Below are positions 24,523 through 64,000 of a stretch of 64,000 nucleotides of DNA, piece after piece. The DNA comes from a virus. The DNA lies in IMG/VR virus record IMGVR_UViG_3300045988_019421, positions 31,999 through 95,998 of that record. The stretch is one strand, 5' to 3'. Position numbers and translations under genes: made by a program. The notes beneath the pieces were generated by a model. That model worked only from the letters and a program-made list of their open reading frames with translations, searched no databases and was not told the origin of the DNA. Positions within the stretch are counted from its first letter, which is position 1; each line of letters opens with the position of its first letter.

Positions 24523-24574
24523 TCCCCCATAAAGGAGTGAGTATTAACAGTAATCACATCTCTTTAAGGGGGAA
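24523..24574. repeat. Intergenic imperfect inverted pair of the TCCCCCNTAAAG(G)AG motif
   Basis: TCCCCCATAAAGGAG (24523-24537) and CTCTTTAAGGGGGAA (24560-24574) are separated by 22 nt. Confidence 0.85.
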
Positions 24575-29637: not shown

Positions 29638-29663
29638 TGACATTACTTTTATTGCTTAACTCT

Positions 29664-29698: not shown

Positions 29699-29842
29699 TT
29701 CATACTATATCTAACTTTTAATAAAATTATTACTTATGGCTAAAATAGATTAATGGTCGAACTTCTTATATTATCTTTTGCTATGAGTGTATAGTAGCTA
29801 CTATAAGATATTCTTAATTTATTAATCTAAACCTTATTTATT

Positions 29843-30559: not shown

Positions 30560-30586
30560 TATTACTAATCAACTAAAGAATAAGTT

Positions 30587-31102: not shown

Positions 31103-31473
31103 TGATAGAAGTAAGTGTAGTAAAACAAAAGCTGCAAGATTACATTGTTAATCAGATAGATATTCTTGGCGAATCTAATCCAGCTATTAAGTTAGTTAAG
31201 CCTTTGGCTAAACGTGCAATTATTAATAACATTGATAGTTTTGATAAGTTTATCAATACTATTGCTAAAGACGGAAAGATTGATATTGAAGGTATAGTTG
31301 ATGAGGAGATTGAAATAATCAAATCTATTCCTAACTTTGATTTTAATATTCCAGTTCTAGGTAATGGTAACATCTCTAATGGTAACATAACTCTTTCTAT
31401 TCCTTTTATTAATAAAGGAATTATGTTTAACCAGTCTGATTTGGAAACATTCAGACAACTATTAACTAAGTAA
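31102..31473 (+). CDS. Hypothetical protein
   Basis: 123-aa ORF with a TAATG junction to the upstream gene. Confidence 0.6.
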   Translation: MIEVSVVKQKLQDYIVNQIDILGESNPAIKLVKPLAKRAIINNIDSFDKFINTIAKDGKIDIEGIVDEEIEIIKSIPNFDFNIPVLGNGNISNGNITLSIPFINKGIMFNQSDLETFRQLLTK

Positions 31474-31480
31474 TATTATT

Positions 31481-32137
31481 ATGAGAGAAGTACCATACGA
31501 GACAGACCAAGATGTTCGTGCTCGTTCTCGAAGAGAAGAAATGTACGAACGAATTAATGATTTCCTTGCTCGTGGCGGTCGCGGAAGAAGCGGTCGTAGC
31601 GGACGTGGAAGAGGAATGATGAATCGTATTGGATATAAGACTTACGACAACTACGACAGGGATGAACAAAGAGGTTACGGTGAACGTCATAGATATGATG
31701 AAAGTCGAGGTTATGATGGAAGTCACGGCTACGATGAAGAAGAACGTATGCTTCTTATGCAAATGCTTGGAGTAGATGGAAACGAACGTTATAATGATTA
31801 TGGTGATGAACATTTTAATAAACAGGAAGCTAAACGTACTGTTGATGAAATGTACCATGTCAAAGACGGTAAGAAATATATCGGTGAGAAATACGATATG
31901 CAGAAAGCTCACGAAGTTTGTAGTAAATTTAAAGATAAACTAGAAGATGAAGTAGAAGTTGCTGATGTTTATGTAGCTATTAATGCTCAATATCACGACT
32001 ACTGTGAACTGTTCGAGAAGTGGTTCGGAAAAGGAAACTTTGACGATATGATATTTGAGAGTGCTATCAGCTTTTGGTTCGATGATGTAGACTTCGGAGA
32101 AGATAAACTCTGGAAATACTTTAATGAATTAAAGTAA
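31481..32137 (+). CDS. Hypothetical protein with an Arg/Gly-rich (RGG/RGY) N-terminal half
   Basis: 218-aa ORF: RGGRGRSGRSGRGRG ... RGYGERHRYDESRGYDGSHGYDEEE, then an acidic/aromatic C-terminal half. Confidence 0.65.
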   Translation: MREVPYETDQDVRARSRREEMYERINDFLARGGRGRSGRSGRGRGMMNRIGYKTYDNYDRDEQRGYGERHRYDESRGYDGSHGYDEEERMLLMQMLGVDGNERYNDYGDEHFNKQEAKRTVDEMYHVKDGKKYIGEKYDMQKAHEVCSKFKDKLEDEVEVADVYVAINAQYHDYCELFEKWFGKGNFDDMIFESAISFWFDDVDFGEDKLWKYFNELK

Positions 32138-46700: not shown

Positions 46701-49700
46701 AACCAAAGACTGCTAAAGAGAAGAAGTTAAAAGAGACATTAGATAAAGTAGTATCTAAAGCTAATTCAGGTGTTGTAAATAAAGCTAATATTAATAACTT
46801 AGAATTTACAATAGTAAAACCTTTTGCTAGTTTAGGAGATGTTAGTAGAAAACCAGTTAAAGTAAGTGCAATAGATGTACGTGTTAGTAAATTTGGCAAT
46901 GTTAGTATTGATGGAATGGATACCAAAGGTAATATCATTGCTGATGTTACTATTGATGAACTAAATGCCGCTATTGCTATCGGAGATATTACTTATGTAG
47001 ATACTAGTAAATCTGATGAATCTGCTCCTGCCGATACTAACGTTCTTGAATCATCTATATCTGATAATGACTTAGAAGGTCAACGCCAACGTATAGAAGA
47101 AATAAATCTAATTATAGATTTATATAATCAGATACAAGGTAATCAGATAGAAGGTAAGACATTTACTAGTCTTAATGATATGATGGTTTATTTACAACAG
47201 TTGAATCCTAAAGCTGTTAATTTGTATAATGATATTAAGATTCTAGCTAATCGTCAAATAGTAGATGGTAAGATAGTTAATGTTGATGAAGAGATTAAAA
47301 CTCCTTCTGATATTATACAAGAAGCAAGTAAGACTTTAGATAAAGCTATTGCAGAGAATAAACAGAATACTAAAGATAATGGTTACTTCTTTAATTTAGT
47401 TAATTTAAATGATAGTAAGGTTTACTCTCGTATCGGTCAGTTAAAGACTAATAATACAGTAAATGTAGAACTAGATGAAAATGGTAATCTTATTGTTAAG
47501 TCTCGTGGAATTAAGATAGGTGAGTTCCCTAAGATTGGTTATAATAATGGTAATGTTGAAGTTATGAATCAAGGTTGGAGATATACTGTTAAGAACGATA
47601 GTATAGATTTCATAACTCAACTTCAATCTATTATTGCTAGCGAAGAACCTGCTGCTAAAGAATTTGTACAACTACTTAATAATATACGTCGTCTATATCG
47701 TGTTCGTAATAATCCCGAAGTTGAGGGAACATTTGGACATCAGCTTAATGCTTTACAAGAGAATGTTTATTGGAAGAATCTAACTAGTTTGTTTGGTGAT
47801 ACTCAAACTAATCTATTAGATAGGATTAAACATCTTAATAATATTATATTCTTTAATAATGCTCTTAATGTTAATCAGTCTAACTTTAGTACCATTGTTA
47901 ATGAATCGTTGACTAATTGGATGAATAAACTCAAGAAGTCTTATATTGACATTAATAACTTAAAGTCCTCTATTAGTAATACTAAATCTAAAAAGAAACG
48001 TTTAGTTGTTGGTCGTACAAGTTCAGGTAGTGTTATTTATGCTAGAGATAAACAAGGTAATCCTATATATCGTAAGTTCGGAGATGTAGCTACTAGTGAA
48101 GCTACTGACGGTTATCGTCTAATAGTAGGAGTTGATGGAGGAGTTGCTGATATTAAATCTAATAGTATTATTGCCGCTAGTCGTATTCCTAGAGGTGTGG
48201 TTGGTATGACTATTAAAGATTCAGAAGGTAGACTTATCGCTGTTACTAGTCGTGAGAATACTATGAGTAATAGTGAAACAGAAGCTACTGAATACACTAA
48301 GAGGTTTAATGAAGGATTAGATAAGTTATTCCATTCATTAGTAGATGCTACTCTGCAAGGAAATACTGACTTACATCAACAACTATTAGATGAAATATCT
48401 AAGTATGTAGGTAAACAAAAAGCTCTTTATGGTTATGAAGTTGTAGGTCGTGCATTTCGTCCTCTTAATAAGATTGGAGCTACTATTTACTTTAACGTTG
48501 CTGATAGAAATGTAGCATTTGCTATACCTGGTGAAACTAAACCTAGAAGACTTATGGCTCGTATGCCTAATGGTTTTGTTCCTACTAATAATCATGGTAA
48601 CTTTAGCACTATGATGGAAGGAGTATATGCTACACTAACTCGTAATGTTATTAATTCAGCTATTCGTGGTGAATCTAATTTATTTAGAATAGTAGACGGT
48701 AAACTACAAGCTAAGATACCTAATATACTTCAAGATGAATGGATGGACACAGGTTACAGTAGTTATGAAGAGTTCGTAGCTAAAGACGGAGTATTAGTTA
48801 CAGACTTAGGTAATGTTACTGACAGTAAAGGCAATATTATTAGTAACTTTAATTATGTAGGAGATGTATATAATCGTAATATTACTCTTATGAATCCTAG
48901 TCGTAGTGCTGGTCGTACTAACGCGGCTGACGCCGCTGTTTCCCCCATAGAGGAGCAACAAGTTGTATCTCCTGTTGCTACTCCTGACCCACTTGCTAGT
49001 CAAGATAGTGCTCCTCAAGTAGGTACTCTTATGGAAGTTGCGCAAGCTAATACTAGTAATCCTAATCTATTATCTGTTATTTCGGCATTAGAATCTGCTG
49101 GCATTGCTCTTAATCCTGATATTGAAATAGTAGGTGAAAAAGGTAGATTTGCAGGAATAGTTGCTGGTGGTAATACTATTACTCTTACTAATAGATTCGA
49201 TACTCTTGAACCTGAACGTAAAGTACTTACTCTTATACATGAAGGTGTTCACTATCTACTTAATGATGAACGTGCTAATATAGAGCAATCATTTGGTGAC
49301 CTATATGATAAGTTTAGTAGTTTTATTAATCAGGATTCTGCTTTAGTAGAAGAATACGGAAGATTCTTAAATAGTGATAAACCTAGAAGCGTAGCTATTG
49401 AGGAATTTGTAGTTGAAGCTATTACTAATCGTACATTTGCTAGATTACTTGCTAGGATTAAATATGATTCTAAAACTAATACTGAATCTAATAATCTATT
49501 TACTAAGATTGTTGATGCTCTAGTAGAGATTATAGGTAAAGTTGGTAATATAGATAATACATTACTTGGTGAAGTTCGTAATCGTTTATCTACTATTGGA
49601 TTAGAAACATCTGATACAGCTAGCACTACAAGTACTGTTCACGACGATGTATTTGATAGAGCAGAAGAAGATACAGGAGTTCCTACTAATGATGTTTTTG

Positions 49701-49940: not shown

Positions 49941-50027
49941 TCCCTATCTTACTATCGAGACGCTATATAAAATGCGAATTTCGGCAGAATTTTGCGGTCT
50001 ACGGGCGTCCGTCAGCCTTCGGAACGT

Positions 50028-53000
50028 ATGGTTTCGGACTATTCGATAAATATATTTGATAGTGTTGATAATAATGCTATCTTTGATACTGTTAGTAATT
50101 ACTTAATTAATAATATAAAGTATATGAGTTGTACTCCTAGTAATCCTAAATTAGATAAGCTATTAGAGCTTACTAATAATGATGTTAGAAAGTCTACCGA
50201 ATATCTTGCTACTATCGAAGATACTAGTTTTCGTGAGTGGTATCAAGAAAAGACCGGTAGAGATTTCAATGAAGAGAGTATTGATGCAAACACTGTTAAT
50301 GCTGTTATAGCATATAATAACAGAGAGACGATTAATACTCAAGATTATGTTCAGAATGTTCGTACTTCACGAACCGGTGTATTTGGTAATGATATAGCAA
50401 AGGAAGACCATGCTATTAATATTCTTAGTACTATTTATCTAAAGAGCCAAGGAAGTATTCGTAAAGCTCTTGCTAATAGAAAACGTAAAGGTGAGAAAGA
50501 AGTTCTAAAGGATAAAGCCGGTAACGAGTTAAGTCCTCAAGCTGCTGTAAAGTTAACTATGATTACTTATCTTAATCGACATCTTAAAGAAAATGATAAG
50601 AAACTTACGCAAGAACAAAAGGCTTATATCGGTACTATTATTCGTAATCTTTATGATGGTGGTAATTATAACCGTAATGAGTTATTTGATATTGTTATTA
50701 ATTCACCCGAAGTTATTAGTCTTAGCAAAGAGTTTGGTATAGATACTAACGAGGATTATGAAACTAATGACGATGCTAAAGAAGGAAGTGAACAAGATAG
50801 TCGCCAAGAAGACCCTGAAACTATTGCCTCTTTACGTGCTGATTGGTCTGAATTAGCCGACCAACGTAAAGACATTGATAAGAATGTTAGTAAAGAAGTA
50901 AAAGAATGGTTTGCTCGTTTGCCTAAAACTAATAGTAATTCTTTTATTAATGAAAAACCTGATACAGCTAGTGATACTTATTCAGGTATAGCTGAAAGTG
51001 TTGGATTCTCTAGTTCTTTTAAAGCATTGAATAATTATGGTAACTTCTCTAGTGTTGAAGCTATGGTAGAAAGTTTCCATACTATTGCTGAAAGATTTAA
51101 AGAAGTATCTCATTTAGAATATGCTGCTCGTCTACTAGAAGATGAAGCTAATGTTCAGATAAGAAATAAGATATTTACTCAACTAAAACAATCTATTTGG
51201 GAACGTAATGAAGTAATTCAAAGTGCAGATGGTTCTAATGTAGTGACTAAAAATCGTAATACTTTCCCTAAACTTAATCTGCAAAATAAGATACTTAATA
51301 GTTTTGATTCTCTTGTTCATAATCCTTCTATTATGAATGGAGATGTTGCAGTATTAGAAGAACTTAAAAATAGATTATCCACATTAAACAATTCAGATAC
51401 AAATGAAATACAAGAAATCTCGGAAGAGCTTGCGGCAATCTTTAATAAATATAACTTCGGCATCAATAGGCAGGGTGTTATTAACTACATTCGTAGCTTC
51501 GGTGATAGTCAACTTTCTAATATCACTAGTCTTGTCAACGATTTGCTAGAATTTAATAAAGTTGTAGCTAATGCGTCTAATATATTAAAGATAGATAATG
51601 AAGCACAACGTATATATTATGCAGGTGAATATAGTAAAGCTAAGAACGATGAAGAATATACAGTAGTTCCATTTGATAAATCTCAACTACAATATAAAGG
51701 TGGTTATGCTAATAATATAGCTAATCGTATATCTGATAGATTTAAAGACTATCAAATAGTAGATTCTGAATTTAATAGTATTAATGCAGAGAACAATCTA
51801 GTTAGTGATATTCTAAAGAATAACTATATTAGTAAATTCTTTGAAAGAATTAACGATAATCGTTATAATGATAATCCTACTTCTAACGTTGAACTTCGTG
51901 ACTATCTAGTAAAGTTTACTAATATTCCTCAATATCAATATAGTAATATACTTATTGAGAAAACTCTATCTAATGGTAAAGTAATTCCCGGTCTACTCCG
52001 TCTCACCGACACTGGTTACGAACTTACTGAATATTATCGTGAGTTTGGTGCACAGTTGTATAATGGTGTTAGTAATGAAGTTACAGGAAAGGCTAAATCT
52101 TATAAAGATATTAATGCTCTTGAATGGGATATTATTACTCTGAATGAATACGCTAATAATGGAGATAACTACGAAATGGCTAAAGGAGTTAAGAAATCTA
52201 AGTTCTTTACCCAAACTCCTTCTGACGCTCCAAAGACTTTCGTATTCAATAGCTACAAGTTAGATATTAATGATTTATTTATTAGACAAACAACAGGTAG
52301 TGAAATAATATTTGAACAATCTTCGTCTGAAAACTACAATGAAAGAACCAATATTAATGCAAACGCAGATGTAACAATAGCGTTTGCTATGGACTTTACG
52401 ACTGCTGGCGAAAAGGTTACAAAGAAGTATGTAGAAAACAATAATAAATTGTATATCCCGATTGATATGAAAAATCTGAAAGGGGTAACAATAGAAGAGA
52501 TAGCAGATAAGATTATAGATAATATAAATAAAAAATATAGTAGTTTATTTCAAAGAGATATAAGTATAAATATTGCAGGTAATGGTATATATACTTTTGA
52601 AAGATATAATATAAACCAAAATAGGATAGATTCATTTATTTATAATGTTCTAAGAAATGTTATAAATAGTCCTAAATTAAATGTTAAAGTAAATCTAATA
52701 AGAAGTGGAGGACAAACAGGTGCAGATGAATCAGGTGCTAAAGCAGGTAAACAGTTAGGAATAAAAACTATTGTATTAGCTCCAAAAGGCTATCGTTTTA
52801 GAAGAAGCGATAATAGAGATATATTTTCAGAAAGTGAATTTAAATCAAGATTTGGAAAATTTAATTCAAGTTCTGTTACATCTATAAATCATAATCATCC
52901 TATATATATTGCTTATGCTAACATCTATGCTAAAGAACTAGCAGAAATGGCACAAGCTATTAACTTCTTATTCGAAACTACTGTTGAGAATGGAGTAGTA

Positions 53001-56000
53001 ACTATTGTGTCTGACGAAAATGGTAAACCTAAGATAAAAGAAGAGTTTAAAGATTTACGTAAATCAGAAGCTAGACTTAATTATCATTATCGTAAAAGTA
53101 TTCTCGATAGTAATGGCAATCCTACTGGTAATGTATTTAAATTTAGAAGTTTACTTATTGATAAAGTCAATAAGATTGACAACTATAAATATAGTAGTAG
53201 TGAGATAGCCAAAAGAGTAGATATGAACTGGTTATTCGAGGAAGGAAGCGTATTCTCGCTTCTTTACGGGGGAAAGAATAGTGAAATATCGCTAATACAA
53301 GATGAGAACGGAGAATATAATATTAGACTTACTGGAGGACTTCGTAATTCTGTATATAACTATATAGATAACTACATTAATTATAGAATACAAGAAGCTA
53401 TTACTAAATACAGTTCTGATAAAGAGTTTGTAGATAAGTATAAAAATGCTAGTCAAGAATCATTCAATGCTTTCATTTCTGAAATGGTTCTTAATTATGA
53501 GATTCAATATAATAATCTAAATGATATATTCTTCGGAGATGAAGCATATTATAAAGATTCTCGTGATACTATTAAACGTAATAAAGAATACCAAGCCGGA
53601 GGATTAGCTTATGCAGGATATGATTTGTATAATGTACAGAAGCATTTGGGAGATATAACAGTAGCTCCTAATAAAACTATTAGTGTAGATAGTAGTTTCA
53701 AATATATTACTCTTGAAGATGTTCAAAGTAGTGGTAAAGTTCTTGATGATTTAAAGAAGCAATTAGATATAGCTAATGTATCTAAAGAAACTAGAGCTTT
53801 TATACTTAAACAGTTCTCTAAAGATAAGTCAGAAGTAACAGATGCTCAATCATTTATTACTCTTGATGAATTTGTTCGTAGAATGTATCTACGTGGAGAA
53901 TATGATAGTTATAAAGATTTAATCGAAGCTCTTTATGACGAAACTAAGCCTATTGATAATGTTAAATTAGGAGAATTATCTAAGAAGATACAAGTTCAGA
54001 AGAACTTCTATTATGACTTAGAAATAGACAATGATGCTAAGTTAGCTAATCCTATTCAGATTAAAAATGCAGAATTTGTACTAATACCTAGATTCTTAGG
54101 TAATAGTGAACTTGGTGCTTTAGCTAAATATATGACTGATAATAATATTGGTCAGGTTAACTTTACTACTACTGAAAAAGCTACTACTAATAGAGTACTA
54201 GAGTTTTGGGATTCTCATGGGAAATTCCCCTCTAAAGAGAAGTTGAAACGGTTTAACTTGGATATCCAAACTAAGTATAAAACTGGTTGGTATTCTAATC
54301 TTTATACCCAACAAGACATTCCTCAACACATGGATGGTGAGAATAAGGCTGGATTGCAGATTGTTAAGAAGCTAATAGATAATATTGGTAATACTCCCGA
54401 AGGTCAATCTCTTATTAAAGATTTCTTTGATAACTTTACTGCTAATATTCAAGATAGTTTTAAAGATGCTGCTTCTCGTATTGGTGTAGAGATTGATGCT
54501 AAAGGTAATGTAGTATACGAAGGTAATCAAGTTAAGATTGATAATAATAAGTTCATATCTCTTATTAAAGACGAGTTAACTCGTAGAGGATTAGATAGTA
54601 ATTATCGTAAGTATGCTGAAATAAATCCTGAAACTGGATTGCCTTATATGCCTACTTGGACTAATCTAGTTCGTAGCAAGATAGAAAATATTGTAAATAG
54701 TATATTTACTAATCGTGTTACTCGACAAGTACTTCCAGGATTTCATGCTAGTCAAGTTTCAGATATTGGTATGACTGAACTATCAGGTCGTAGTGATTTA
54801 AGAGATTTGATGCAATCAAGAGTAGAAGAGAAGCATGGTTATTCTCTTGGTCGTAAACTAACATATCATAAAGACGGTAGTCAGATAGTAGAAATACTGT
54901 TACCTAAATGGATGGTAAAGGCTTATAATACTTATGATTCAGAAGGTAATCTAGTTAATGAAGTTACTCTTGAAGATTTACAATCTGCTGGACTTGATAC
55001 TATGATTGGTTATCGTATTCCAACAGAAGGTAAACAATCAGTAGCAGTAATGAAAGTTGTAGGTTTATTAGATGAATCTCAAGGTTCTACTATTGTTGTT
55101 CCTGATGAATGGGTATTACAAACTGGTGCTGACTTTGATATTGACAGTATCTATGGTATTTATCATACTGCTACATTCGATAAGAATGGTAAACCACAGA
55201 AAGTTGAATATATAGAAGGAGAAGATGATGCAGCAGTAAATAGAAGATATAATAACTATCTGTTTAATAATCTAAGTAAAGAGAATATTCAAGATGCTAG
55301 AGATATTGCAATAGATTTAAGTCAAGAAGGACTAAGCTATGCAGAAGCTTATGAATCAGCTATTACTAAATATGCTGAACAAGGAGGACTTTATTCTAAA
55401 GAAGAATTTAGTAAGCTAACAGTAGCTCAACAGAATACTCGTGATGCTCGTAACAATAAGATAGTAGATACATTTATTAAGATAATGAATCTACCAGTAT
55501 CTATTGGTGAAAACTTATCTTCTAGTAACTTTGAAGATATTAAAGCTGCAAAAGCTAATATCTTTGAAGGTTTATCAGAGACTTATCGTAATATTAATTC
55601 AGTAATTGCTCAAAATTGGTATCGTGATGCTAATATGTCCGGTGCGCGTCTTAAAGCTATTTCTGTTAATCGTGACAACTTCGCCTCTATTAGTAACAAA
55701 GCTAAAACTATTGTTGACGGTGCACACGGTGGTTTTAGGTTTACTTATACATATAGCACAGAGAAAGAAGCAAAAGACGCACAAAGTAAACTAAGAAAAC
55801 GTTTTAGAGATGTAACTAGAAAAGGTAAAGAAGTAACAGTAGACCATAATCAGTTGGGTTGGAGTTACGATAATCTTAATATAGATAATCGTTTGATTAC
55901 TCCTTATTCTTCTGAAACTACTGCTCTTATTCTTGATGGTGTAAAAGAAGGTGGTGTTCCTAATGTAGATTTGTATACTTTTGATGTATATAAATCTATT

Positions 56001-59000
56001 GTAGATTGTGGTGCTAATTATGAAACATCTATTCTATTTATTAATCAACCAGTAATAACTGAACTTATTGCTAGACAAAATGCTAACGATAATGTATTCG
56101 GAGAGACTGGATTTAATCCTCTTATTGGATTAAGACGAGACATGTATGTAAGATTAGCTAAAGCTGTTGGTATTCCTACTAATAGTATTACTAAAAAGAC
56201 TCGTCTTAAAGATGTTAAGAAAATGCTTGAGAGTAGAGGAATAGAGATTAACGAAGATGAACTTCTTGAAGAAGGAATAAAAGTAACTGAACTAAGAGAA
56301 CATCTTAAAGATGATGTAGAGAATGTTAGTTCTACTAATACAGATAATCTCATATATCAAATTAAAGCGTTAAGAGCATTTGAATATTTTAAAGAGATAG
56401 GCGACCAAATCAATTCCAATATGATGGTTATCACTAGTGATAAGTTTGGTGCTGGTAAATCTGCTAATGAAATAGATAATGTTATTAATCGTATTAATGA
56501 TATTAAGGAGAATAATGTTGGTCGTATAAAAAAAGGTCAACCTGTTCTTAAAGCAGTTACAGAAGAAGGTAACAAGTATCTAATAGATGCTATTTATCCT
56601 AAGACTAATTTCAATACTATTAATGATATTAATAAGGATGAACTAGAATCTGCATATCCTTCTTTATATTATCAGTTAAAGTATAGTTGTATAGCTACTG
56701 AAAAGATTATTCGTGATAGTGAGATATTCAAAACTCAAACACCGCAATTCCGTGAATTAGTTAGTAAGTTTGGTATTCGTAATCTTCAAACTATTCAGCA
56801 GTTAGAGAGTTTCATTATTAATATGAGCCAAGCACAGTCTAACTTTGTTAATACTAATAGATTCATAACTAAAAGTGATAATGAGTTTATACCTAGCTAT
56901 AATATAAATCTTATTAGTAGCCAACAAGATACTCGTGCTAGATTATATGGATATACTGATATAGTAGGTAGTTTCGATATGTCTGATATGTCTGAAAAGA
57001 ACGTAGAAGCATTTATGAAATTATCTCCTGCCAATAAAGTAGCATTGATTCAAAGATATACTTCTGATAATAATCTATTTAAGAATTTAAATGTTGAGTA
57101 TAAAGGTCGTCGTAATAGTTATAATAGAATAACTATTGTTGATAGTACTATATCTACTGAATCTCAATATCAAATGTTCCGTAATGCTTGGCATAATAAT
57201 AATCCATTTATTAAACTTGCTACTATGGATTTGATAAGATATTCTATGGTAGTAGAAGGTTATAAATTTAAAGGTGGTACAGTTAGTAAAATTATTCCTG
57301 TTGAATTATTATATGGACAAGATACTGGTATTGATTCTGATAATGGAGTTTCTTCAGCTACTAATATTATTAATGATTCAGATAGAGCTATTAATAGCAT
57401 GATTCAATATGGTAGTGAGACAGGAACTTATGAAAGAGCTAGCAATGATGCGGCAACTATTGAAAAGTTACGTGACTTATTCTTTAGAACTAATCCTAAT
57501 AATCCTGATGTATTAGTATTTGAGAATAAGAAGTATAAAGAATCCAATAAGATAACATTTAATAGATTAGATGTTGGAAGACTTAGCTTTAAAGAAGCTC
57601 AAGAACGCGGAATGATTACTGGTAGTGAGAATAATCGTAGGTATCGTTATTATGCTAAGACTAATGATAACAATAAAACTCTGCGATTATATAAACTAGT
57701 ATATTATAACGATACTGTTTATATGTTACCTACTAATCCATTAGAACAGAATGAAATTGGAGAAGTAAGTGTTAATCCTGATAATAATAGAATGTTTCTT
57801 CCATTAGATATATTAGAAGATGTTTCTATTAATCAATATGATGCTGCTTTTATTAGTTCTGTAAATATCGGTATTACTTCTGATACTCGTAAGTTTATGG
57901 TTCTTCCTACTGTATTTGAAAGAGGAGCTGATACATTAATCGAAGAAGTATTTCCTAATAGTATTGTCTTGACTTCCCCCATAAAGGAGCAGCAAATTGA
58001 TACTTCTCGTAAGTACATTGTGGCTATTACCGATAATAATACTCTATTAGAAACTATTGAATCTCTTGATGCAGCTGGTGTTCATGATTATGTAGTTGCT
58101 GCTCCTAATATGAATTATAATAATATTCGTAGGATTATTAATGAACGTAATAATGCAGATATTGCAGCTAAGAGATTACAAGCAGCTATGACTAAGCTAG
58201 ATGCTAATGAAGTTCAACTTAGAAAGAAGAAATCAGATAATTCTGAATCTCCTTATTATGCTCAACTTAAAGCTAGCATTAATCAAACTATTAATGATGT
58301 AAATGTTAATGGTATTGGATTTGTTCCTGTTTTACAAACAGTGATAGACAATACTGGTTTTAGACCCAATGGATATTTCAGATATGAAAAAGAAGGTAAT
58401 GTTTATATCGTTACTAACTTAGGACGTATAACTACTAAATCGGTTAGTCTTACTCCTGATTATTCATATAGTAGAAAAACTATTATTAATAGTGTGTCTC
58501 AACTAGAATTTCCTAGACGCAATGCTTTAACTCAAGTAGTTAAAGAAAATGCTAGATTAGATAAATTCGCTAACAATAATATTATTAGAGTTCAGACAGA
58601 AGAGAACTTTATTAATGAAGATGTACTTGAATCAGCATTAGTAGATAATGATAGAGAAATTAACGAATATATTTCTCGTGTAATTGAAAGTGTTGAGAGA
58701 AGTAATGCTAATGTTGAAGAAGCAGCTCTTAATGATGCTTTCCGTTCATTCGCCTCTATTGACTTACGTTCTAATACAGCTACTAAGTTAAATGATAACT
58801 TACGTGAGCAAGCACTGAAAATCATTAACGGTTATACTAATAGACGTATTGATGATTTCTTATTTGATATTCATAATTTCTATACTACTTATGTTACTAA
58901 TCCTGATGGTACTTATAAACTAGACGAAAATGGTAATAAGATAGTAATGGAGAAATGGGGTATAACTAATAAGAAGTTATTCGACCGTATGTTAGAAGAT

Positions 59001-62000
59001 GAAACATTACGTACTCGTTATGAAATGTTCCTAGATGACATTAATAGATTTGTAGAAGATTATTCTATTATTGAAGCTATTCAACCTTACGATATTGATG
59101 AAGCTCATAGTGTAAGTGAGACAGAAGAAGAAATAGAAGGTTTACGTAGAACTAATGATATGCTTAAACAAATCAAAGATAAGTTCAAACGTATTAAAGA
59201 CTTAGATAATGTAGTTAAGCGTAGTACTAAGATGTACTTCGATAGTTATATTACTAGTCTTTCTAGTGACCCTCGTGTTCAATCTAATATGCTTAGTATT
59301 ACAGAAGCATTTGAAGATGAGAACTTCTTCCAGTTTTGGTTAGCTGATAGTCAAGAGACACATATTCCAATAGTTCAGATAGTTCTAAAACAAATGATGA
59401 ACCAATTAAGAGCTAGTGAGATTAATGCTCGTGATAGAAAGATAACCTTTACTTCCGCTATTTCAGCGATTATCGAGGACGCAAAAAGCAACGGTGTAAA
59501 CGTGTCTCTGAACGATATTTTGGACGAAAATGGCAATCTTTTGCTGCTGTATAATGAATCGTTCACTGATAAATTAAGGTCGTTAAAAGAGGCTGTAAAG
59601 CTGGCTCAAATCGACGACCCGAATGGTCGGGACGGTCTTATATATAAGAAAGCTAAGGATGAACTAGAGAAGTTCTTAATAGATAATGTAGAAAGAGAGA
59701 ATGTAAAAGAGTTTTATCAAGACTACTATGATATGAATCAAATACTTAATAAATATCCTCAAACTTATGTTAAGTTAATGAAGATATTACATGAGGAAGG
59801 AGATATATTAAGTACAATGATTGATAATGATTATAGTACTCTTACTGTTCAGAATGCAAGAAGGCTTGAAGAGCTTAGAAATGAGTTAGCAGAAATGCGA
59901 GCTACTATTGATATGGATGGTAATTATAAAGAGAATTATCAAGAAGCTAATGCTGTTAATAATTACTTGTCACGTAGACGTCAGTTAAATAATAAGTATA
60001 AAGAGAGTAAACCTAAAGATGCTTTTACTATTCGTTATAAACAAGCTATTGAAGGTTTACAATATCCTGAAACTTCTGAAACTTATAGAGAATCAGTAGA
60101 ATGGTTAAAAGCTAATACTGATTATAAGTTAAAAGGAGAGTTCTTAGAAGAACTAAAGAAGGCTTATATGGATACTCGTTTAGGTAATCCTTTCGATAGT
60201 TTCGTTCGTACTATGGCTTATGGTAAGTATGATTCAGAAGGTGTTATTGATGGTACTAAGTTTACCGATGTTCAAATAGCTAATCTAAAGAAACATCAGG
60301 AGCAAATGTTTGCCGCTGCTGTTGGTCGCGTTAAGCCAAATGAACAGAAAGCTCAAGAATGGTTAGATAATCATGTTAGTTATATCAATACTGTTTACTA
60401 TGAAGCTATGTATGTAGCTATGAACAAAATGGGTAAAGTAGTATTTGATAAATGGTATAACGAGAATCATGTACTTAATCCTATTACTAAAGAATACGAA
60501 CCATTAGCTATTTGGAAACAAATGGTAGTTAAGGACGAAGCTAATAATATGGAATATAGTCCTAAATATAAATGGTTAGAAACTAAAGTTAAAGACCAAT
60601 ATAAGAATCCTAACTATGATGAAGTTAAGCTACAACCTTCTACTAATAAATATCGTAACGATAAGTATTATGGAATGAATAATTATCAGCAACAATTATA
60701 TAATGAAGTAGATTCTCTTCTTAACGAACTTGTTAAAGATAAACGTAGTCGCGCTTATATTAATCGTGGTTATTTACCTAATCAAGCTATTGAACAGCCA
60801 AGTCAAGGTTTTGCTGACTATTGGCAAGACTTTAAACGTAGTCATGGTTGGTATGATACTCCTAATAAATCTGATATAGAACTTAATCTATATAAGAGGT
60901 TTAGTAATGCTCCTATGCTTCATAGTTTATCGGAAGTTAAGTTACTTCCTATTCGTGAACAACAAGAAGGAGAAACTAAAGAAGAATATCTAACTTATGT
61001 TCGTGAAACTCAAGCTAAGAATAATGAATTACGTAAACAAAGAGCACAGGAAAATGCAGAACGTAATAATCCAAATGTTCTTGAAAGACTTAATTCATTT
61101 ATAGATAGTATGTATAACTTTAATACTCGTAATGATATAGCTAGATTAGCTAAGATTACTAGTAATCAATTACGTAATATGGATATTATTAAGAGAAATC
61201 CTAATGATAAACTTATGGATAATAGATTACTTAGTAGAATTACTGGTAAACAAGAAATACGTACTACTAAGAGTGATGATTCGAATATAGTTAAACACTT
61301 CGAGAATCAAGTTCGTAAGTTAGTATTTAATGAATTTGAAATGGATGAAGGTACTCGTTCTAAAGTATCTCGTGTTATGCGTAATATGGTATCTAGTAAG
61401 TTTATGATGTTAAACATTACTGGTGGTATTGCTAACGTTCTATACGGTAAGACACAGATACAAATGGAAATGGCTGCCGGACAATTCTTTAAATACAAAG
61501 ACTTCCGTAAAGGTGAGAACGAATGGATGCAGAATATAGGTAGTTATTTAGCAGATGCTTATAATGAAACTACTAATAATGAAACTAATGCCGTTATTAG
61601 ATTATTTAATGTTATTGAATCTGATATGGTAACAGAACGTTATGGTAAAGGTAGTAATCCAATGGGTAAATTAGAGAACCTATTGTTTATCCAACAGACA
61701 GCAGGTGAACATTATATGCAGAACGCTACATTGTTAGCTATGCTTCATTCTCATAGAGTTGTTGCTGTTAATGGTAAGAATAAAGTAATGTCATTTGAAC
61801 AGTTTGCTATGAGACTTAGAGAAGAAGCATTACTTAAAGTTCTTCGTAAGAATAATCCTGAATTAGTTACTAAATATGAAACATTCAGAGATAAAGTGCT
61901 TGAATCATATATTGAGAAAGAACGTTATGTTAAGTTTAAAGCTGATATAATAACTGACTTCTTACGCTCTGTTCCTAAAGAGATAAGAGAAGAGTTTAAA

Positions 62001-63008
62001 GCTACCTATAAAGAAGATACTAAAGAAGAAAGAACTAAGTTCGAGAATCATCCTTCTTTTAGAGAAAGTCTTATCTTGAAGAATGGTGTTGCTACTCTTA
62101 AACCTGACAGTGGTCTTACTAATGATGATATTGCAGCTTTCCGTAATAAGGTTATATCAGTTAATCATCAAATACATGGTATCTATGATAAGATTGGTGC
62201 TAATCAATTACAACAATCTTGGTGGGGAGCTTTACTAATGCAGTTCCATAAACACTTAGTTCCTGGATTCCAAAAACGTTTTGGTTATCGTTTAGGTCAT
62301 TTTGACGGTATATATAACGAAACTAGAGAATCTATTAGTAAAGGAACTTATGTTAGTTTAGGTGAGTTTATAGCAATGCCATTTAAGAAATACTACGAAC
62401 TTAATGATAGTAACGAACTTCAAGCTGTTCGTACTCTTCAAGGTATTGCTAAAGGTTATGCAGATTTTGTAGCTAATCTTACTACTTATTATAATATTCT
62501 TCCTGAATATGATAAAGCTAATATTCGTAGATGTTTAGGTGAATGGATAGGTATTGTTAAAACAGTTGCATTATTTGTAGCAGGTAAGTTGATGCTTGAT
62601 GATGATGACGATTCTACACAAGTAGCAGATTATATTCTATATAGTGCTGACCGTCTAATGTCTGAAACTATTCAGTATACTCCATGGGGTATGATTAATG
62701 AAGGACAGAAACTATATAGTCAACCTGTTGCAGCATTTAGTATTGCACAGGACACTCTTAGATTATTAGGAGCTTGTTGTAGTTATATAATTACTGGTAA
62801 CTCTGATGATTTATATTATAGTTCAGGTAGTTACTCTGGTGAAAATAAACTTGCAGTAAACTTCTTTAAACAAGTACCATTAGTTAATCAAATTAGAAAA
62901 CATGAAAGACTTGGTGCTAATAATAGTTACTATAAAGTTCGTAGTAGTCCGTTTAGTGGTTTAGGTCAAGTTATTGCTAATATGATTACTGGTGAAGATG
63001 AAGAATAA
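50028..63008 (+). CDS. Giant virion-packaged RNA polymerase-like protein (crAss-type, DxDxD), with an embedded YpsA/SLOG-like domain
   Basis: About 4326 aa from ATG 50028 (the ORF track uses TTG 49992; an alternative ATG is at 50124). In-frame GAC TTT GAT ATT GAC (DFDID) at 55131-55145 within VVPDEWVLQTGADFDIDSIYG. SGGQTGADESGAKAG at 52704 onward. Confidence 0.7.
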   Translation: MVSDYSINIFDSVDNNAIFDTVSNYLINNIKYMSCTPSNPKLDKLLELTNNDVRKSTEYLATIEDTSFREWYQEKTGRDFNEESIDANTVNAVIAYNNRETINTQDYVQNVRTSRTGVFGNDIAKEDHAINILSTIYLKSQGSIRKALANRKRKGEKEVLKDKAGNELSPQAAVKLTMITYLNRHLKENDKKLTQEQKAYIGTIIRNLYDGGNYNRNELFDIVINSPEVISLSKEFGIDTNEDYETNDDAKEGSEQDSRQEDPETIASLRADWSELADQRKDIDKNVSKEVKEWFARLPKTNSNSFINEKPDTASDTYSGIAESVGFSSSFKALNNYGNFSSVEAMVESFHTIAERFKEVSHLEYAARLLEDEANVQIRNKIFTQLKQSIWERNEVIQSADGSNVVTKNRNTFPKLNLQNKILNSFDSLVHNPSIMNGDVAVLEELKNRLSTLNNSDTNEIQEISEELAAIFNKYNFGINRQGVINYIRSFGDSQLSNITSLVNDLLEFNKVVANASNILKIDNEAQRIYYAGEYSKAKNDEEYTVVPFDKSQLQYKGGYANNIANRISDRFKDYQIVDSEFNSINAENNLVSDILKNNYISKFFERINDNRYNDNPTSNVELRDYLVKFTNIPQYQYSNILIEKTLSNGKVIPGLLRLTDTGYELTEYYREFGAQLYNGVSNEVTGKAKSYKDINALEWDIITLNEYANNGDNYEMAKGVKKSKFFTQTPSDAPKTFVFNSYKLDINDLFIRQTTGSEIIFEQSSSENYNERTNINANADVTIAFAMDFTTAGEKVTKKYVENNNKLYIPIDMKNLKGVTIEEIADKIIDNINKKYSSLFQRDISINIAGNGIYTFERYNINQNRIDSFIYNVLRNVINSPKLNVKVNLIRSGGQTGADESGAKAGKQLGIKTIVLAPKGYRFRRSDNRDIFSESEFKSRFGKFNSSSVTSINHNHPIYIAYANIYAKELAEMAQAINFLFETTVENGVVTIVSDENGKPKIKEEFKDLRKSEARLNYHYRKSILDSNGNPTGNVFKFRSLLIDKVNKIDNYKYSSSEIAKRVDMNWLFEEGSVFSLLYGGKNSEISLIQDENGEYNIRLTGGLRNSVYNYIDNYINYRIQEAITKYSSDKEFVDKYKNASQESFNAFISEMVLNYEIQYNNLNDIFFGDEAYYKDSRDTIKRNKEYQAGGLAYAGYDLYNVQKHLGDITVAPNKTISVDSSFKYITLEDVQSSGKVLDDLKKQLDIANVSKETRAFILKQFSKDKSEVTDAQSFITLDEFVRRMYLRGEYDSYKDLIEALYDETKPIDNVKLGELSKKIQVQKNFYYDLEIDNDAKLANPIQIKNAEFVLIPRFLGNSELGALAKYMTDNNIGQVNFTTTEKATTNRVLEFWDSHGKFPSKEKLKRFNLDIQTKYKTGWYSNLYTQQDIPQHMDGENKAGLQIVKKLIDNIGNTPEGQSLIKDFFDNFTANIQDSFKDAASRIGVEIDAKGNVVYEGNQVKIDNNKFISLIKDELTRRGLDSNYRKYAEINPETGLPYMPTWTNLVRSKIENIVNSIFTNRVTRQVLPGFHASQVSDIGMTELSGRSDLRDLMQSRVEEKHGYSLGRKLTYHKDGSQIVEILLPKWMVKAYNTYDSEGNLVNEVTLEDLQSAGLDTMIGYRIPTEGKQSVAVMKVVGLLDESQGSTIVVPDEWVLQTGADFDIDSIYGIYHTATFDKNGKPQKVEYIEGEDDAAVNRRYNNYLFNNLSKENIQDARDIAIDLSQEGLSYAEAYESAITKYAEQGGLYSKEEFSKLTVAQQNTRDARNNKIVDTFIKIMNLPVSIGENLSSSNFEDIKAAKANIFEGLSETYRNINSVIAQNWYRDANMSGARLKAISVNRDNFASISNKAKTIVDGAHGGFRFTYTYSTEKEAKDAQSKLRKRFRDVTRKGKEVTVDHNQLGWSYDNLNIDNRLITPYSSETTALILDGVKEGGVPNVDLYTFDVYKSIVDCGANYETSILFINQPVITELIARQNANDNVFGETGFNPLIGLRRDMYVRLAKAVGIPTNSITKKTRLKDVKKMLESRGIEINEDELLEEGIKVTELREHLKDDVENVSSTNTDNLIYQIKALRAFEYFKEIGDQINSNMMVITSDKFGAGKSANEIDNVINRINDIKENNVGRIKKGQPVLKAVTEEGNKYLIDAIYPKTNFNTINDINKDELESAYPSLYYQLKYSCIATEKIIRDSEIFKTQTPQFRELVSKFGIRNLQTIQQLESFIINMSQAQSNFVNTNRFITKSDNEFIPSYNINLISSQQDTRARLYGYTDIVGSFDMSDMSEKNVEAFMKLSPANKVALIQRYTSDNNLFKNLNVEYKGRRNSYNRITIVDSTISTESQYQMFRNAWHNNNPFIKLATMDLIRYSMVVEGYKFKGGTVSKIIPVELLYGQDTGIDSDNGVSSATNIINDSDRAINSMIQYGSETGTYERASNDAATIEKLRDLFFRTNPNNPDVLVFENKKYKESNKITFNRLDVGRLSFKEAQERGMITGSENNRRYRYYAKTNDNNKTLRLYKLVYYNDTVYMLPTNPLEQNEIGEVSVNPDNNRMFLPLDILEDVSINQYDAAFISSVNIGITSDTRKFMVLPTVFERGADTLIEEVFPNSIVLTSPIKEQQIDTSRKYIVAITDNNTLLETIESLDAAGVHDYVVAAPNMNYNNIRRIINERNNADIAAKRLQAAMTKLDANEVQLRKKKSDNSESPYYAQLKASINQTINDVNVNGIGFVPVLQTVIDNTGFRPNGYFRYEKEGNVYIVTNLGRITTKSVSLTPDYSYSRKTIINSVSQLEFPRRNALTQVVKENARLDKFANNNIIRVQTEENFINEDVLESALVDNDREINEYISRVIESVERSNANVEEAALNDAFRSFASIDLRSNTATKLNDNLREQALKIINGYTNRRIDDFLFDIHNFYTTYVTNPDGTYKLDENGNKIVMEKWGITNKKLFDRMLEDETLRTRYEMFLDDINRFVEDYSIIEAIQPYDIDEAHSVSETEEEIEGLRRTNDMLKQIKDKFKRIKDLDNVVKRSTKMYFDSYITSLSSDPRVQSNMLSITEAFEDENFFQFWLADSQETHIPIVQIVLKQMMNQLRASEINARDRKITFTSAISAIIEDAKSNGVNVSLNDILDENGNLLLLYNESFTDKLRSLKEAVKLAQIDDPNGRDGLIYKKAKDELEKFLIDNVERENVKEFYQDYYDMNQILNKYPQTYVKLMKILHEEGDILSTMIDNDYSTLTVQNARRLEELRNELAEMRATIDMDGNYKENYQEANAVNNYLSRRRQLNNKYKESKPKDAFTIRYKQAIEGLQYPETSETYRESVEWLKANTDYKLKGEFLEELKKAYMDTRLGNPFDSFVRTMAYGKYDSEGVIDGTKFTDVQIANLKKHQEQMFAAAVGRVKPNEQKAQEWLDNHVSYINTVYYEAMYVAMNKMGKVVFDKWYNENHVLNPITKEYEPLAIWKQMVVKDEANNMEYSPKYKWLETKVKDQYKNPNYDEVKLQPSTNKYRNDKYYGMNNYQQQLYNEVDSLLNELVKDKRSRAYINRGYLPNQAIEQPSQGFADYWQDFKRSHGWYDTPNKSDIELNLYKRFSNAPMLHSLSEVKLLPIREQQEGETKEEYLTYVRETQAKNNELRKQRAQENAERNNPNVLERLNSFIDSMYNFNTRNDIARLAKITSNQLRNMDIIKRNPNDKLMDNRLLSRITGKQEIRTTKSDDSNIVKHFENQVRKLVFNEFEMDEGTRSKVSRVMRNMVSSKFMMLNITGGIANVLYGKTQIQMEMAAGQFFKYKDFRKGENEWMQNIGSYLADAYNETTNNETNAVIRLFNVIESDMVTERYGKGSNPMGKLENLLFIQQTAGEHYMQNATLLAMLHSHRVVAVNGKNKVMSFEQFAMRLREEALLKVLRKNNPELVTKYETFRDKVLESYIEKERYVKFKADIITDFLRSVPKEIREEFKATYKEDTKEERTKFENHPSFRESLILKNGVATLKPDSGLTNDDIAAFRNKVISVNHQIHGIYDKIGANQLQQSWWGALLMQFHKHLVPGFQKRFGYRLGHFDGIYNETRESISKGTYVSLGEFIAMPFKKYYELNDSNELQAVRTLQGIAKGYADFVANLTTYYNILPEYDKANIRRCLGEWIGIVKTVALFVAGKLMLDDDDDSTQVADYILYSADRLMSETIQYTPWGMINEGQKLYSQPVAAFSIAQDTLRLLGACCSYIITGNSDDLYYSSGSYSGENKLAVNFFKQVPLVNQIRKHERLGANNSYYKVRSSPFSGLGQVIANMITGEDEE

Positions 63009-63036
63009 CTAACTTAAATATTACAACTCATAGGAA

Positions 63037-63075
63037 AGCCCGAACTGCTCGTGAGAGTAATTCGGGCTAATTTTT
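63037..63075. terminator. Bidirectional terminator between convergent genes
   Basis: AGCCCGAA (63037-63044) pairs with TTCGGGCT (63061-63068). It is followed by AATTTTTATATTT on the + strand and preceded by an A-rich tract that serves the minus strand. Confidence 0.55.
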
Positions 63076-63102
63076 ATATTTAAAAAAGTTTGTAATTTCT
63101 AG

Positions 63103-63594
63103 CTATCCATTAGAATATAGTTTAATATATTCAGATATAAACTTATTTCTATCTCCCATGAACATCATATTGTGATTAATGATATAAATATTATTTTTAT
63201 CATTAACAGCTTTAGCAATAAAATTAGCATTTATAAGTTGTTGAATACCATCATTTATTCTAGGTTGACTAACAGATAGTTCTTTTGAAATCTTAGTCTG
63301 ATTCAATACTATCCAATTAGAATTAAATTTAATATTTCTATAAATGTAATTCAGCATAGACAAACCATGAGTCTTTAAGTATCTTAGATTAGACATTCCA
63401 TCAAAATATAATTGCATAAAACTACCAGTATATCTTACCTTTTCATCTTTGATTAGAACAATATCTACTCCATATTTATTAGCTATCTGTTGAAGCTCAT
63501 CAAAAGCATTATTACTATAATCTTTTGGATTAATATTGAAAGGAAATATAGTAGGTTTAATAAGACTACTATCAACATTGACATTAGTTCCCAT
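63103..63594 (-). CDS. wHTH DNA-binding protein, RepL-like replication/regulatory protein (first gene of the opposite-strand module)
   Basis: 163-aa ORF. Its HTH-like segment LNQTKISKELSVSQPRINDGIQQLINANFI resembles the RepL/wHTH pattern. Iteron-like repeats lie immediately upstream. Confidence 0.45.
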   Translation of the reverse strand: MGTNVNVDSSLIKPTIFPFNINPKDYSNNAFDELQQIANKYGVDIVLIKDEKVRYTGSFMQLYFDGMSNLRYLKTHGLSMLNYIYRNIKFNSNWIVLNQTKISKELSVSQPRINDGIQQLINANFIAKAVNDKNNIYIINHNMMFMGDRNKFISEYIKLYSNG

Positions 63595-63623
63595 ATATGT
63601 ATGTTAATTAATTGTTAATACCG

Positions 63624-63655
63624 CCAAATTTATACAGTTTTGCGTATAAAATCAA
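63624..63655 (-). promoter_or_regulatory. Probable Bacteroides-type promoter for the minus-strand gene
   Basis: The + strand CAAATTTA at 63624-63631 is TAAATTTG (TAnnTTTG) on the minus strand, 30 nt upstream of the ATG at 63594. The -33 region is T-rich (GATTTTAT) and overlaps repeat 1. Confidence 0.45.
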
Positions 63656-63692
63656 GCAATTTCACTATTATTTTATACAGTTTTGCGTATAA
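63629..63692. repeat. Two exact 21-nt direct repeats TTTATACAGTTTTGCGTATAA (iteron/operator-like)
   Basis: Copies at 63629-63649 and 63672-63692, 43 nt apart start to start. Each contains the inverted half-sites TATAC-N8-GTATA. Confidence 0.85.
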
Positions 63693-63840
63693 TTTAAATC
63701 ATCTAACTAACTGATAATCAATGAATTAACATAAAATTAACACTATAATAAGATAAAGACTTCTTATATAATATAGATTTATCATTTAGATATGCAAATA
63801 TACTATTAAATTTTTAATTAACTTAGCTTTACTATATCCC

Positions 63841-63940
63841 GCTCGCCTATCGGCTCGCTTTCTTCCCCCATAAAGGAGTAGGTTTACCGATAATTCCACT
63901 CCTTTATGGGGGATTTAGCGAGCTTGCGAGCGTAGGCAAG
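63841..63940. repeat. About 100-nt imperfect palindrome built on a perfect inverted pair of the TCCCCCATAAAGGAG motif
   Basis: TCCCCCATAAAGGAG (63864-63878) and CTCCTTTATGGGGGA (63899-63913) are separated by a 20-nt spacer. The outer arms are GCTCGCCTATCGGCTCGCT and AGCGAGCTTGCGAGCGTAGGC. Confidence 0.9.
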
Positions 63941-64000
63941 TCCAGCAATACAACTATCTTTAATACGTTGGTTTTATCCAAGTACAGTTTAAAAAAAAAG

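Follow-up and report, generated by a model that had tools for sequence, protein, structure and literature searches.

We analysed a 64,000-nt stretch of viral DNA (the window; positions 31,999 to 95,998 of IMG/VR record IMGVR_UViG_3300045988_019421) and focused on an extended GC-rich palindrome close to its end, at 63840-63932. The window belongs to a Jahgtovirus (Crassvirales, Intestiviridae) and shares about 87-97% identity with the Bacteroides phages crAss002 and cr107_1. The two inner arms of the palindrome are inverted copies of a motif that is dispersed over the genome and takes a different form in each genus of the family. In four genera, the inverted pair is found in the same spacer, and exchangeable replicon cassettes lie next to it. 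We therefore tentatively read the palindrome as the syntenic double site of a family-wide motif, a cis element that is independent of the initiator and stands beside plug-in replicon cassettes; we give this reading somewhat less than an even chance.

The palindrome and its two inverted arms

A preliminary description of this DNA, made from the letters alone, had pointed to a large GC-rich palindrome, and direct reading of the sequence bore this out. The palindrome is capable of forming a hairpin or cruciform on both strands, with 30 or more pairs and a z-score of about -8. Its left inner arm (63864-63879, plus strand) matches the dispersed motif TCCCCCATAAAGGAGT perfectly, and its right inner arm (63898-63913, minus strand) is a perfect inverted copy. 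The inverted repeat had been given as perfect, with 15-nt arms and a 20-nt spacer; it is indeed perfect, but the arms measure 16 nt and the spacer 18 nt. This spacer or loop, AGGTTTACCGATAATTCC (63880-63897), is moderately variable among relatives and may add 2-5 stem pairs.

The arms are flanked by GC clamps, which are composed of GCTCGC and GCGAGC units, as had been described, with two units on each side. The left clamp (63840-63859) holds GCTCGC at 63841-63846 and 63853-63858; relatives have either this form or GCTAGC..GCTAGC. The right clamp (63917-63932) reads GCGAGC-TT-GCGAGCG, with GCGAGC at 63918-63923 and 63926-63931, and is invariant among relatives. Once mismatches are allowed, the palindrome arms reach 23 nt at 87% with a 4-nt gap.

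The folding energies of the palindrome RNA were -57.7 kcal/mol for the plus strand and -61.9 kcal/mol for the minus strand (z = -7.8 and -8.6, respectively), and none of 200 shuffles equalled them. As DNA, the palindrome folded at -32.7 kcal/mol (z = -8.5). The GC content was 52% in 63841-63940, 20.3% in 63595-63840 and 32% in the whole window, in agreement with the AT-rich surroundings reported earlier.

The arms belong to a dispersed motif

With up to three mismatches allowed, the 16-mer TCCCCCATAAAGGAGT had 17 matches in the window, as compared with 0.18 expected. The genome of crAss002 contains 25 copies with up to two mismatches in 93 kb, and TCCCCCRTARAGGAGY is the top over-represented 12-mer in the window and in crAss002 alike; it also ranks first when 12-16-mers of the genome are considered. 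The information of the Jahgtovirus motif is limited to about 17 positions; the flanks past the 16 nt carry none. Copies are found on either strand and, within genes, in each of the three frames, indicating that the signal acts at the level of DNA and ruling out a peptide repeat.

We made several conclusions by comparing the motif among genera. First, each genome has its own version of the motif as its top over-represented 12-mer, that is, its own dialect: TCCCCCRTARAGGAGY in Jahgtovirus (the window and crAss002), TGNTGYAANNNCCCCTGTARAGGAG in Rudgehvirus jaberico, GKGTWGACYCCCCGTRGAGGATGGA in the prototypical crAssphage (p-crAssphage, Carjivirus communis) and GASACCCCCCGTAGAGGAW in Delmidovirus cr11_1. 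The common core CCC[CT][AG]T[AG][AG]AGGA, for which about zero copies are expected, occurs 10 times in the window, 21 times in crAss002, 22 times in Rudgehvirus, 31 times in p-crAssphage and 29 times in cr11_1; crAss001 (Steigviridae) has no copy of it. Second, about 70% of the copies are coding (71 versus 32 intergenic), with sense and antisense orientations about equally frequent. Third, new copies arise in place, with no insertion or deletion relative to the orthologues that have none. Fourth, about 40% of the copies in alignable genes hold their position between genera, where their sequence follows the dialect of the genus. Such a concerted change at kept positions argues for a trans factor that evolves together with the motif. 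Finally, the close pairs (up to 200 nt apart) number 12, and every one of them is inverted rather than direct. In the searchable literature we found no report of a motif dialect, and the papers on crAss002, crAss001, p-crAssphage and phi14:2 are silent on the motif.

Some further properties of the copies were recorded. The folding excess around single copies was small and not decisive, about -1 to -2 kcal/mol, with p ranging from 0.0003 to 0.1 among the genomes. A trend for neighbouring copies to alternate in strand (p = 0.07 to 0.005) was seen in four genomes, those of crAss002, Rudgehvirus, p-crAssphage and crAss001, but a hand count in cr11_1 gave 16/28; this alternation is suggestive only. 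The 31 copies of p-crAssphage (BK010471) fall into two coupled sub-types, in which GAC is followed by C (12/16) and TAC or AAC by T (12/15), which suggests either two recognition variants or copy-to-copy conversion. The genome of crAss001 carries a dispersed element of its own, NCTCCAGAAGNGN, with 27 core copies on both strands. Many of these have 3-6-bp stems with covarying flanking bases, and neighbours alternate in strand (p = 0.0045).

The inverted pair is syntenic in four genera

The last spacers of the replication module contain an inverted pair in all four of the genera Jahgtovirus, Rudgehvirus, Carjivirus and Delmidovirus. The syntenic pairs are located at 63864/63898 in the window, 55426/55522 in Rudgehvirus, 28077/28172 in p-crAssphage and 77222/77254 in cr11_1. 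Among close relatives, where its conservation had been proposed as a check, the palindrome is kept and nearly invariant: in 11 distinct variants, its 32 pairs have four one-sided changes and no compensatory change. One-sided changes without compensation indicate that the palindrome is conserved as a sequence, and the variation among the 11 variants is too small to judge the structure.

A half element was also found in crAss002 at 89.64-89.69 kb (locus L004, 39640-39690). It consists of one motif copy and GCGAGC-TTT-GCGAGCG, is near-identical to the right half of the palindrome, and lies in a gene-poor region by the divergent module junction; the skew minimum, at the record start (position 81), follows after about 3.5 kb. 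The IMG/VR relatives have two to three composite loci of motif and clamp each. No composite element was found in 185,579 bacterial and archaeal genomes.

Layout of the locus

The plus-strand genes of the window form the structural module, the last of them encoding the giant virion RNA polymerase (RNAP; 49992-63008), and the minus-strand genes, which begin outside the window, form the replication module. The two modules converge, and the palindrome is thus situated near the convergent junction, in the spacer before the last minus-strand gene. In the Jahgtovirus relatives, the order along the minus strand is small genes, a hairpin with a T8-9 terminator, about 60 nt, the palindrome, about 40 nt, the box TATATTTG and the cassette. 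The intrinsic terminator of the upstream minus-strand gene starts in the window at 63971-64000, with an A9 run (63991-63999) that is a T-run on the minus strand; its hairpin extends past the window end and is complete in relatives.

The sequence TATATTTG (63795-63802, minus strand), about 40 nt downstream of the palindrome, is a putative promoter box of the Bacteroides -7 type. It matches the consensus of this box, TAnnTTTG. The homology between the window and crAss002 stops at 63791, just beyond the box.

The cumulative GC skew is at its maximum at 63092 in the window and at 64305 in crAss002, and the minimum marks the opposite, divergent junction. The palindrome lies 0.4-0.8 kb from this maximum, i.e., from the convergent gene junction. 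A skew switch near the locus, as would be looked for at an origin, is therefore present, but its polarity is not that of an origin: a maximum has terminus polarity, and the skew tracks gene orientation.

Replicon cassettes are exchanged beside the palindrome

The variable cassette gene of the window is a minus-strand open reading frame (ORF) of 163 codons (63103-63594), which had been described as a winged helix-turn-helix (wHTH) or RepL-like gene. This assignment holds. The protein exceeds the Pfam RepL gathering score (25.8 versus 20.3 bits, E = 8.8e-6) and is homologous to RepL gp43 of p-crAssphage (29% identity, E = 9e-9, tblastn); it has no significant relative in PDB or NCBIfam. Two copies of the 21-nt direct repeat TTTATACAGTTTTGCGTATAA precede the gene, at 63629-63649 and 63672-63692, 43 nt apart, as had been noted; they lengthen to 30 nt at 87%. 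Copy 1 overlaps a second -7-like box, TAAATTTG (63625-63632, minus strand), 31 nt before the RepL-like ATG, so that the repeats overlap a putative promoter. The distances given earlier from the palindrome to the gene (about 250 nt) and to the repeats (about 150-210 nt) were right.

Different cassettes occupy this position, or none does. Version 1, with the RepL-like gene and the two 21-nt repeats, is found in the window and at loci L117 and L047, and the AT-rich spacer (63703-63839, about 20% GC) is nearly invariant in the three relatives sharing it. Version 2, in other Jahgtovirus relatives, encodes a different wHTH protein of 182 aa and has three tandem 16-nt iterons that abut the palindrome. 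The 182-aa protein has 30% identity to the RepL-like protein (E = 9e-7) and a weak match to the N-terminal domain of phage O. Version 3, in crAss002, cr107_1 and others, has a 71-aa ORF and/or a nearly invariant 375-nt non-coding element, with or without gp34. In Rudgehvirus and cr11_1, unrelated small genes lie beside the motif pair.

The palindrome does not depend on these initiators. With no initiator beside it, it is kept in crAss002, in cr107_1 and in 18 or more other contigs, and the arms match at 16/16 positions in crAss002, cr107_1 and many contigs. In all, 20 distinct IMG/VR loci retain it without an adjacent initiator, as do cr11_1 and Rudgehvirus, and a Pfam search of the genes near both crAss002 junctions found no RepL. 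Since the palindrome is retained almost unchanged without an initiator gene, it is independent of RepL and is not RepL's own origin sequence.

Signs of a coupling to the replicon cassettes remain. Among 29 distinct Jahgtovirus loci, all nine that bear an initiator have perfectly pairing GCTCGC arms, while those without an initiator comprise five GCTCGC and 15 GCTAGC forms (hypergeometric probability about 2e-4, with shared descent ignored). The GCTAGC form is a double change that makes a local hairpin and disrupts two long-range pairs. In p-crAssphage (BK010471; motif pairs at 28.08-28.19 kb and 95.75-95.88 kb), a paralogous motif-pair palindrome lies upstream of each of the two RepL genes, and one of these genes has the motif pair, a GC-rich arm, AT-rich DNA and two 27-nt repeats right before its ATG.

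The 375-nt element of version 3 replaces window positions 63087-63790. It is GC-richer, lies at 64.06-64.44 kb in crAss002 (locus L001, 4593-4968) and at 21 further loci, and its central 200 nt or so are identical in 22 distinct variants whose neighbouring genes are 5-8% diverged. In seven sequences, a UA pair of one hairpin is replaced by CG, a compensatory change, and no Rfam match was obtained. The element may represent a structured RNA or a further cis element.

Proposed role of the palindrome

Given that the motif is dispersed in dialects and that its inverted pair is syntenic, we propose the following mechanism for the palindrome as an initiator-independent double site. A putative phage-encoded, sequence-specific factor would read the motif on the DNA genome-wide. 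At this locus, the inverted pair would provide a high-occupancy site or a site of cruciform extrusion, and the GC clamps could lock the two inverted 16-bp copies within easily melted DNA of 20% GC. The palindrome might thereby serve as a constant landing or organising site for the replication or DNA-handling machinery, next to which alternative cassettes of initiator and iterons could plug in. The swappable cassette that ends the replication module would be expressed from the predicted Bacteroides-type promoter about 40 nt past the palindrome. The target of the RepL-like protein would be the 21-nt repeats over its own promoter rather than the palindrome. The sequence comparisons show that the motif is dispersed, acts at the DNA level and has dialects throughout the family, that the pair is syntenic and independent of RepL, and that the cassettes are swapped; binding by a protein, extrusion of a cruciform and a role linked to replication are what we infer from this arrangement.

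Several observations weigh against the proposal. First, no binding protein was singled out for the motif; the IHF-like, DUF932, zinc-ribbon and HNH proteins are candidate readers, only as leads. In addition, the locus is at the GC-skew maximum, where the polarity is that of a terminus and not of an origin, and the pairs of Rudgehvirus and cr11_1 are without GCGAGC-type clamps. The spacing of paired copies ranges from 26 to 167 nt, a poor fit to a dimer site of fixed geometry. Within the genus, divergence was 5.4% in the motif and 6.1% in the flanks (p = 0.48), a comparison that was small, dominated by two degenerate sites and subject to locus-sampling bias. Just two of the five homology breakpoints versus crAss002 lie near a motif copy (within 75 nt, both in spacers), leaving a function as a module-shuffling boundary unsupported. 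Finally, plain linkage or common ancestry might explain why arm form and initiator go together, and the GCTAGC form is possibly one mutational event.

A broader form of the proposal, which we regard as doubtful, is that the Intestiviridae hold a genome-wide recognition system: 20-31 copies per genome of a 16-25-bp genus-specific sequence, placed in genes regardless of frame and strand, would be read by a putative phage factor, the clamped pairs at two module junctions would be master sites, and the palindrome would be the site of nucleation or entry. Such a system could, for example, comprise priming or initiation signals for the single-strand-dependent virion RNAP or the replisome, or an analogue of the 'self' tags used in uptake or packaging. 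It could also account for the Hi-C stripe reported for crAssphage, in which one segment contacts all loci.

Alternative explanations

The motif may have no role specific to this locus. It would then be a genome-wide, density-dependent 'self tag' for packaging, nicking, recombination or protection, and the palindrome would be one of several spacer pairs, like the pairs of DNA uptake sequences (DUS) in Neisseria terminators. This is unlikely in our view, though the copies themselves give it some ground: they arise in place and turn over, spacer lengths are unconstrained, the window holds a second pair (24523-24573), and each of the other genomes has two to six close pairs, all inverted. What a self tag leaves unexplained is that a pair sits in the same spacer of four genera, that the GC clamps of the palindrome are common only to the element at the other module junction, and that initiator cassettes recur next to it.

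The palindrome could also be part of a classical RepL-dependent origin, in which the initiator binds the 21-nt repeats and the AT-rich DNA melts. The preliminary description had noted the layout of such an origin, and the combination of palindrome, AT-rich DNA, repeats and RepL gene in the window is real and recurs. A like layout precedes RepL gp88 of p-crAssphage, where Ori-Finder and nanopore coverage have been reported to place an origin (PMC10983915). The tandem iterons of a second initiator type directly adjoin the palindrome, and the arms pair perfectly wherever an initiator cassette occurs. The part that does not stand is the palindrome as RepL's own origin: it is retained without an initiator in crAss002, cr107_1 and many contigs, in cr11_1 and Rudgehvirus the pair lies beside unrelated genes, the arms are the dispersed motif and not specific to RepL, and the locus is at the skew maximum. 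We consider a RepL-dependent origin rather improbable.

A function at the level of the transcript is improbable too. As RNA, the pair could insulate or terminate transcription, be processed by an RNase or form a stabilising 5'/3' stem-loop between the early operon and the cassette promoter. The hairpin is very stable on both strands and stands between a terminator and a putative promoter, and the second pair of the window ends precisely at a start codon. An intrinsic terminator was rejected, since no terminator-like site was found in 62900-64000 and neither strand has a T-run, or U-tract in the RNA, after the palindrome; a canonical hairpin with a T8-9 terminator is already present 60 nt upstream. 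The absence of compensatory changes, the single copies on both strands within genes, and the lack of any Rfam family above threshold also speak against an RNA element. With Rfam 15, the window gave no match, and crAss002 gave only a chance match to mir-968 (31 bits versus a threshold of 88). No tRNA or tmRNA was found.

Localized nicks with consensus sites are known from T5, phiKMV and tf phages. By analogy, a phage nickase could cut one strand at each copy of the motif, and the inverted pair would give staggered nicks, a cos- or pac-like break or a start of recombination-dependent replication. The motif resembles nick sites in its length (16-25 bp) and copy number, in occurring within genes and on either strand, and in having a genus-specific consensus; crAss002 has HNH genes and has been reported to be a pac headful packager, the pac position being absent from the main text of that report (PMC8042965). 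We nevertheless give this explanation little credit. No HNH gene is annotated in cr11_1 despite its 29 copies, and the terminal repeats of p-crAssphage lie about 30 kb from the homologous pair (PMC6712665). Their 1853-bp length matches no inter-copy distance near the junction, which speaks against motif copies as the edges of the terminal repeat in p-crAssphage. The earlier suggestion of a pac or terminase site is likewise not supported in the form in which it was made, given the distance of these repeats.

The least probable explanation, and a very unlikely one, is the hairpin promoter for early transcription by the injected RNAP that had been suggested, i.e., an N4-like single-strand promoter or priming signal: the element does lie in the presumed early module and the bottom strand of every dialect allows a short CTCC/GGGG stem, but the copies are spread over the late genes in both orientations, with sense about equal to antisense, which misfits a set of early promoters, and the palindrome, with an inner stem of at least 16 bp and an 18-nt spacer, is far above the 5-7-bp stems of N4, the stems within single copies having just 4 bp, one of them a G-T pair. 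The crAss-type virion RNAP of phi14:2, which transcribes only single-stranded or denatured DNA, was reported to have early promoters without a common motif (bioRxiv 10.1101/2020.03.07.982082), so that its single-strand dependence is in favour of such a signal and the missing motif is against it.

A mobile element of the MITE or RPE type was also considered and rejected. The coding copies are without insertions or deletions versus orthologues, the flanks are uninformative in Jahgtovirus, and the bacterial genomes are empty of the element.

Further motif copies and other features of the window

A degenerate motif copy lies in the terminase gene (2386-2401, plus strand). The copy at 5941-5956 (minus strand) is within a gene, and its position is kept in Rudgehvirus and p-crAssphage. 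Further coding copies were located at 10033-10048 (minus strand, two mismatches), 38624-38639 (minus), 39586-39601 (plus), 43592-43607 (plus), 46626-46641 (minus; with the GC-rich stretch CGCTTCGCTCC on its C-rich side) and 48941-48956 (plus). Two copies lie in the virion RNAP gene, at 53258-53273 (minus strand; one mismatch relative to the consensus TCCCCCRTARAGGAGY and three relative to the exact 16-mer) and 57975-57990 (plus strand). This gene is a single ORF of 4338 aa encoding a fused virion RNAP and is preceded by an ORF of 2019 aa; both ORFs hold several motif copies in both orientations.

The second inverted pair (24523-24573) consists of TCCCCCATAAAGGAGT and CTCTTTAAGGGGGA and lies between a 2626-aa ORF and the ORF at 24574-24894. 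The last base of its right arm, CTCTTTAAGGGGGA, immediately precedes the ATG at 24574, so that this purine-rich arm fills the position of the ribosome-binding site.

A terminator-like hairpin with the conserved loop TGCTCGTGAGAGTA (63037-63068, plus strand) lies between the convergent virion RNAP and RepL-like genes. Its loop, TTGCT[CT]GTGA[AG]AGTA, is fixed, and its outer stems are wholly different between genera. Compensation is seen in the inner stem, where CTC-GTGA-GAG gives way to CTT-GTGA-AAG with the GNRA-type tetraloop in between. One copy of this hairpin is present in the window. Counterparts occur at about 4541-4572 in L001, at the same position in L002, at 5356-5385 in L122 and at about 27165-27195 (minus strand) in L128; Rudgehvirus and cr11_1 have it between the motif pair and the next gene.

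The window differs from crAss002 in three further places. A 2.26-kb insertion with five small ORFs (29704-31962) follows the terminator after the motif copy at 29623-29638 (plus strand), which lies at the end of the ORF at 29329-29637. A segment of about 600 nt (52282-52880) is extra in the virion RNAP gene. The central part of the 1452-aa ORF is largely replaced (25149-29167), which is probably related to host range.

Significance

Among the phages of the human gut, Crassvirales are the most abundant. To our knowledge, their replication origins, the promoters of their injected RNAP and their means of long-term persistence are still not known. The exact sequences and positions given here for four genera, including the 31 copies in the prototypical crAssphage, describe a candidate cis-acting DNA code shared by the family. 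The proposed phage-plasmid lifestyle is directly concerned by the conserved double site, next to which RepL-type cassettes come and go. The culturable isolates crAss002 and Rudgehvirus jaberico carry the element. If a reader protein were found, it would represent a new phage DNA-recognition system and could provide tools for phage tracking and engineering, such as motif-based detection and origin cloning.

Comparison with known systems

The locus resembles the repL-oriL replicon of P1 and the predicted RepL-proximal origins of p-crAssphage (PMC10983915) in that a gene of the RepL wHTH family is preceded by promoter-overlapping direct repeats, AT-rich DNA and a large inverted repeat, although oriL of P1 lies inside repL. 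As in RepL and iteron replicons, initiator and repeats swap together as a cassette. Unlike in those replicons, the palindrome is kept without an initiator, has arms made of a genome-wide motif and is located at the skew maximum, and there are two repeats rather than an iteron array.

The N4 phage also packages a giant virion RNAP that needs single-stranded template features, and has hairpin-forming DNA in its early region. Its three small hairpins have a 5-7-bp stem and a 3-nt loop and are oriented to the early genes, whereas the present system has a 90-nt palindrome and 20-30 copies in both orientations. The nick sites of T5, phiKMV-like and tf/LUZ24-like phages have a consensus of 9-19 nt at fixed places, including in genes, that is conserved in relatives; the copy number of our motif is higher, crassviruses are not known to have such nicks, and no conserved nickase gene was identified. 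The stoperators of L5 and the C1 operators of P1 are likewise tens of asymmetric 13-17-bp sites read by one phage protein, some of them in inverted pairs. Stoperators are mostly intergenic and co-oriented with transcription, in contrast to the motif, which is in genes in about 70% of cases, has no orientation bias and is accompanied by no repressor or lysogeny module.

The properties that mark dispersed recognition sequences (DUS, uptake signal sequences (USS), stoperators and Chi-like sites) were found in the motif: over-representation on both strands, in coding and non-coding DNA, and concerted dialects. It is similar to the Neisseria DUS and Pasteurellaceae USS in being a short, asymmetric and dense sequence that occurs on both strands, in any frame and in spacers, with intergenic inverted hairpin pairs, and in having lineage dialects, which imply a co-evolving reader. 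The differences are that its carrier is a phage genome and not a competent bacterium, that it is longer (16-25 bp) and sparser (one per 3-4 kb), and that no uptake process is involved. Compared with DUS and USS, stoperators, P1 operators and nick sites, the set described here differs in being carried by the dominant gut phage family, in the length of its sites and their mainly coding location, and in having dialects and GC-clamped master pairs.

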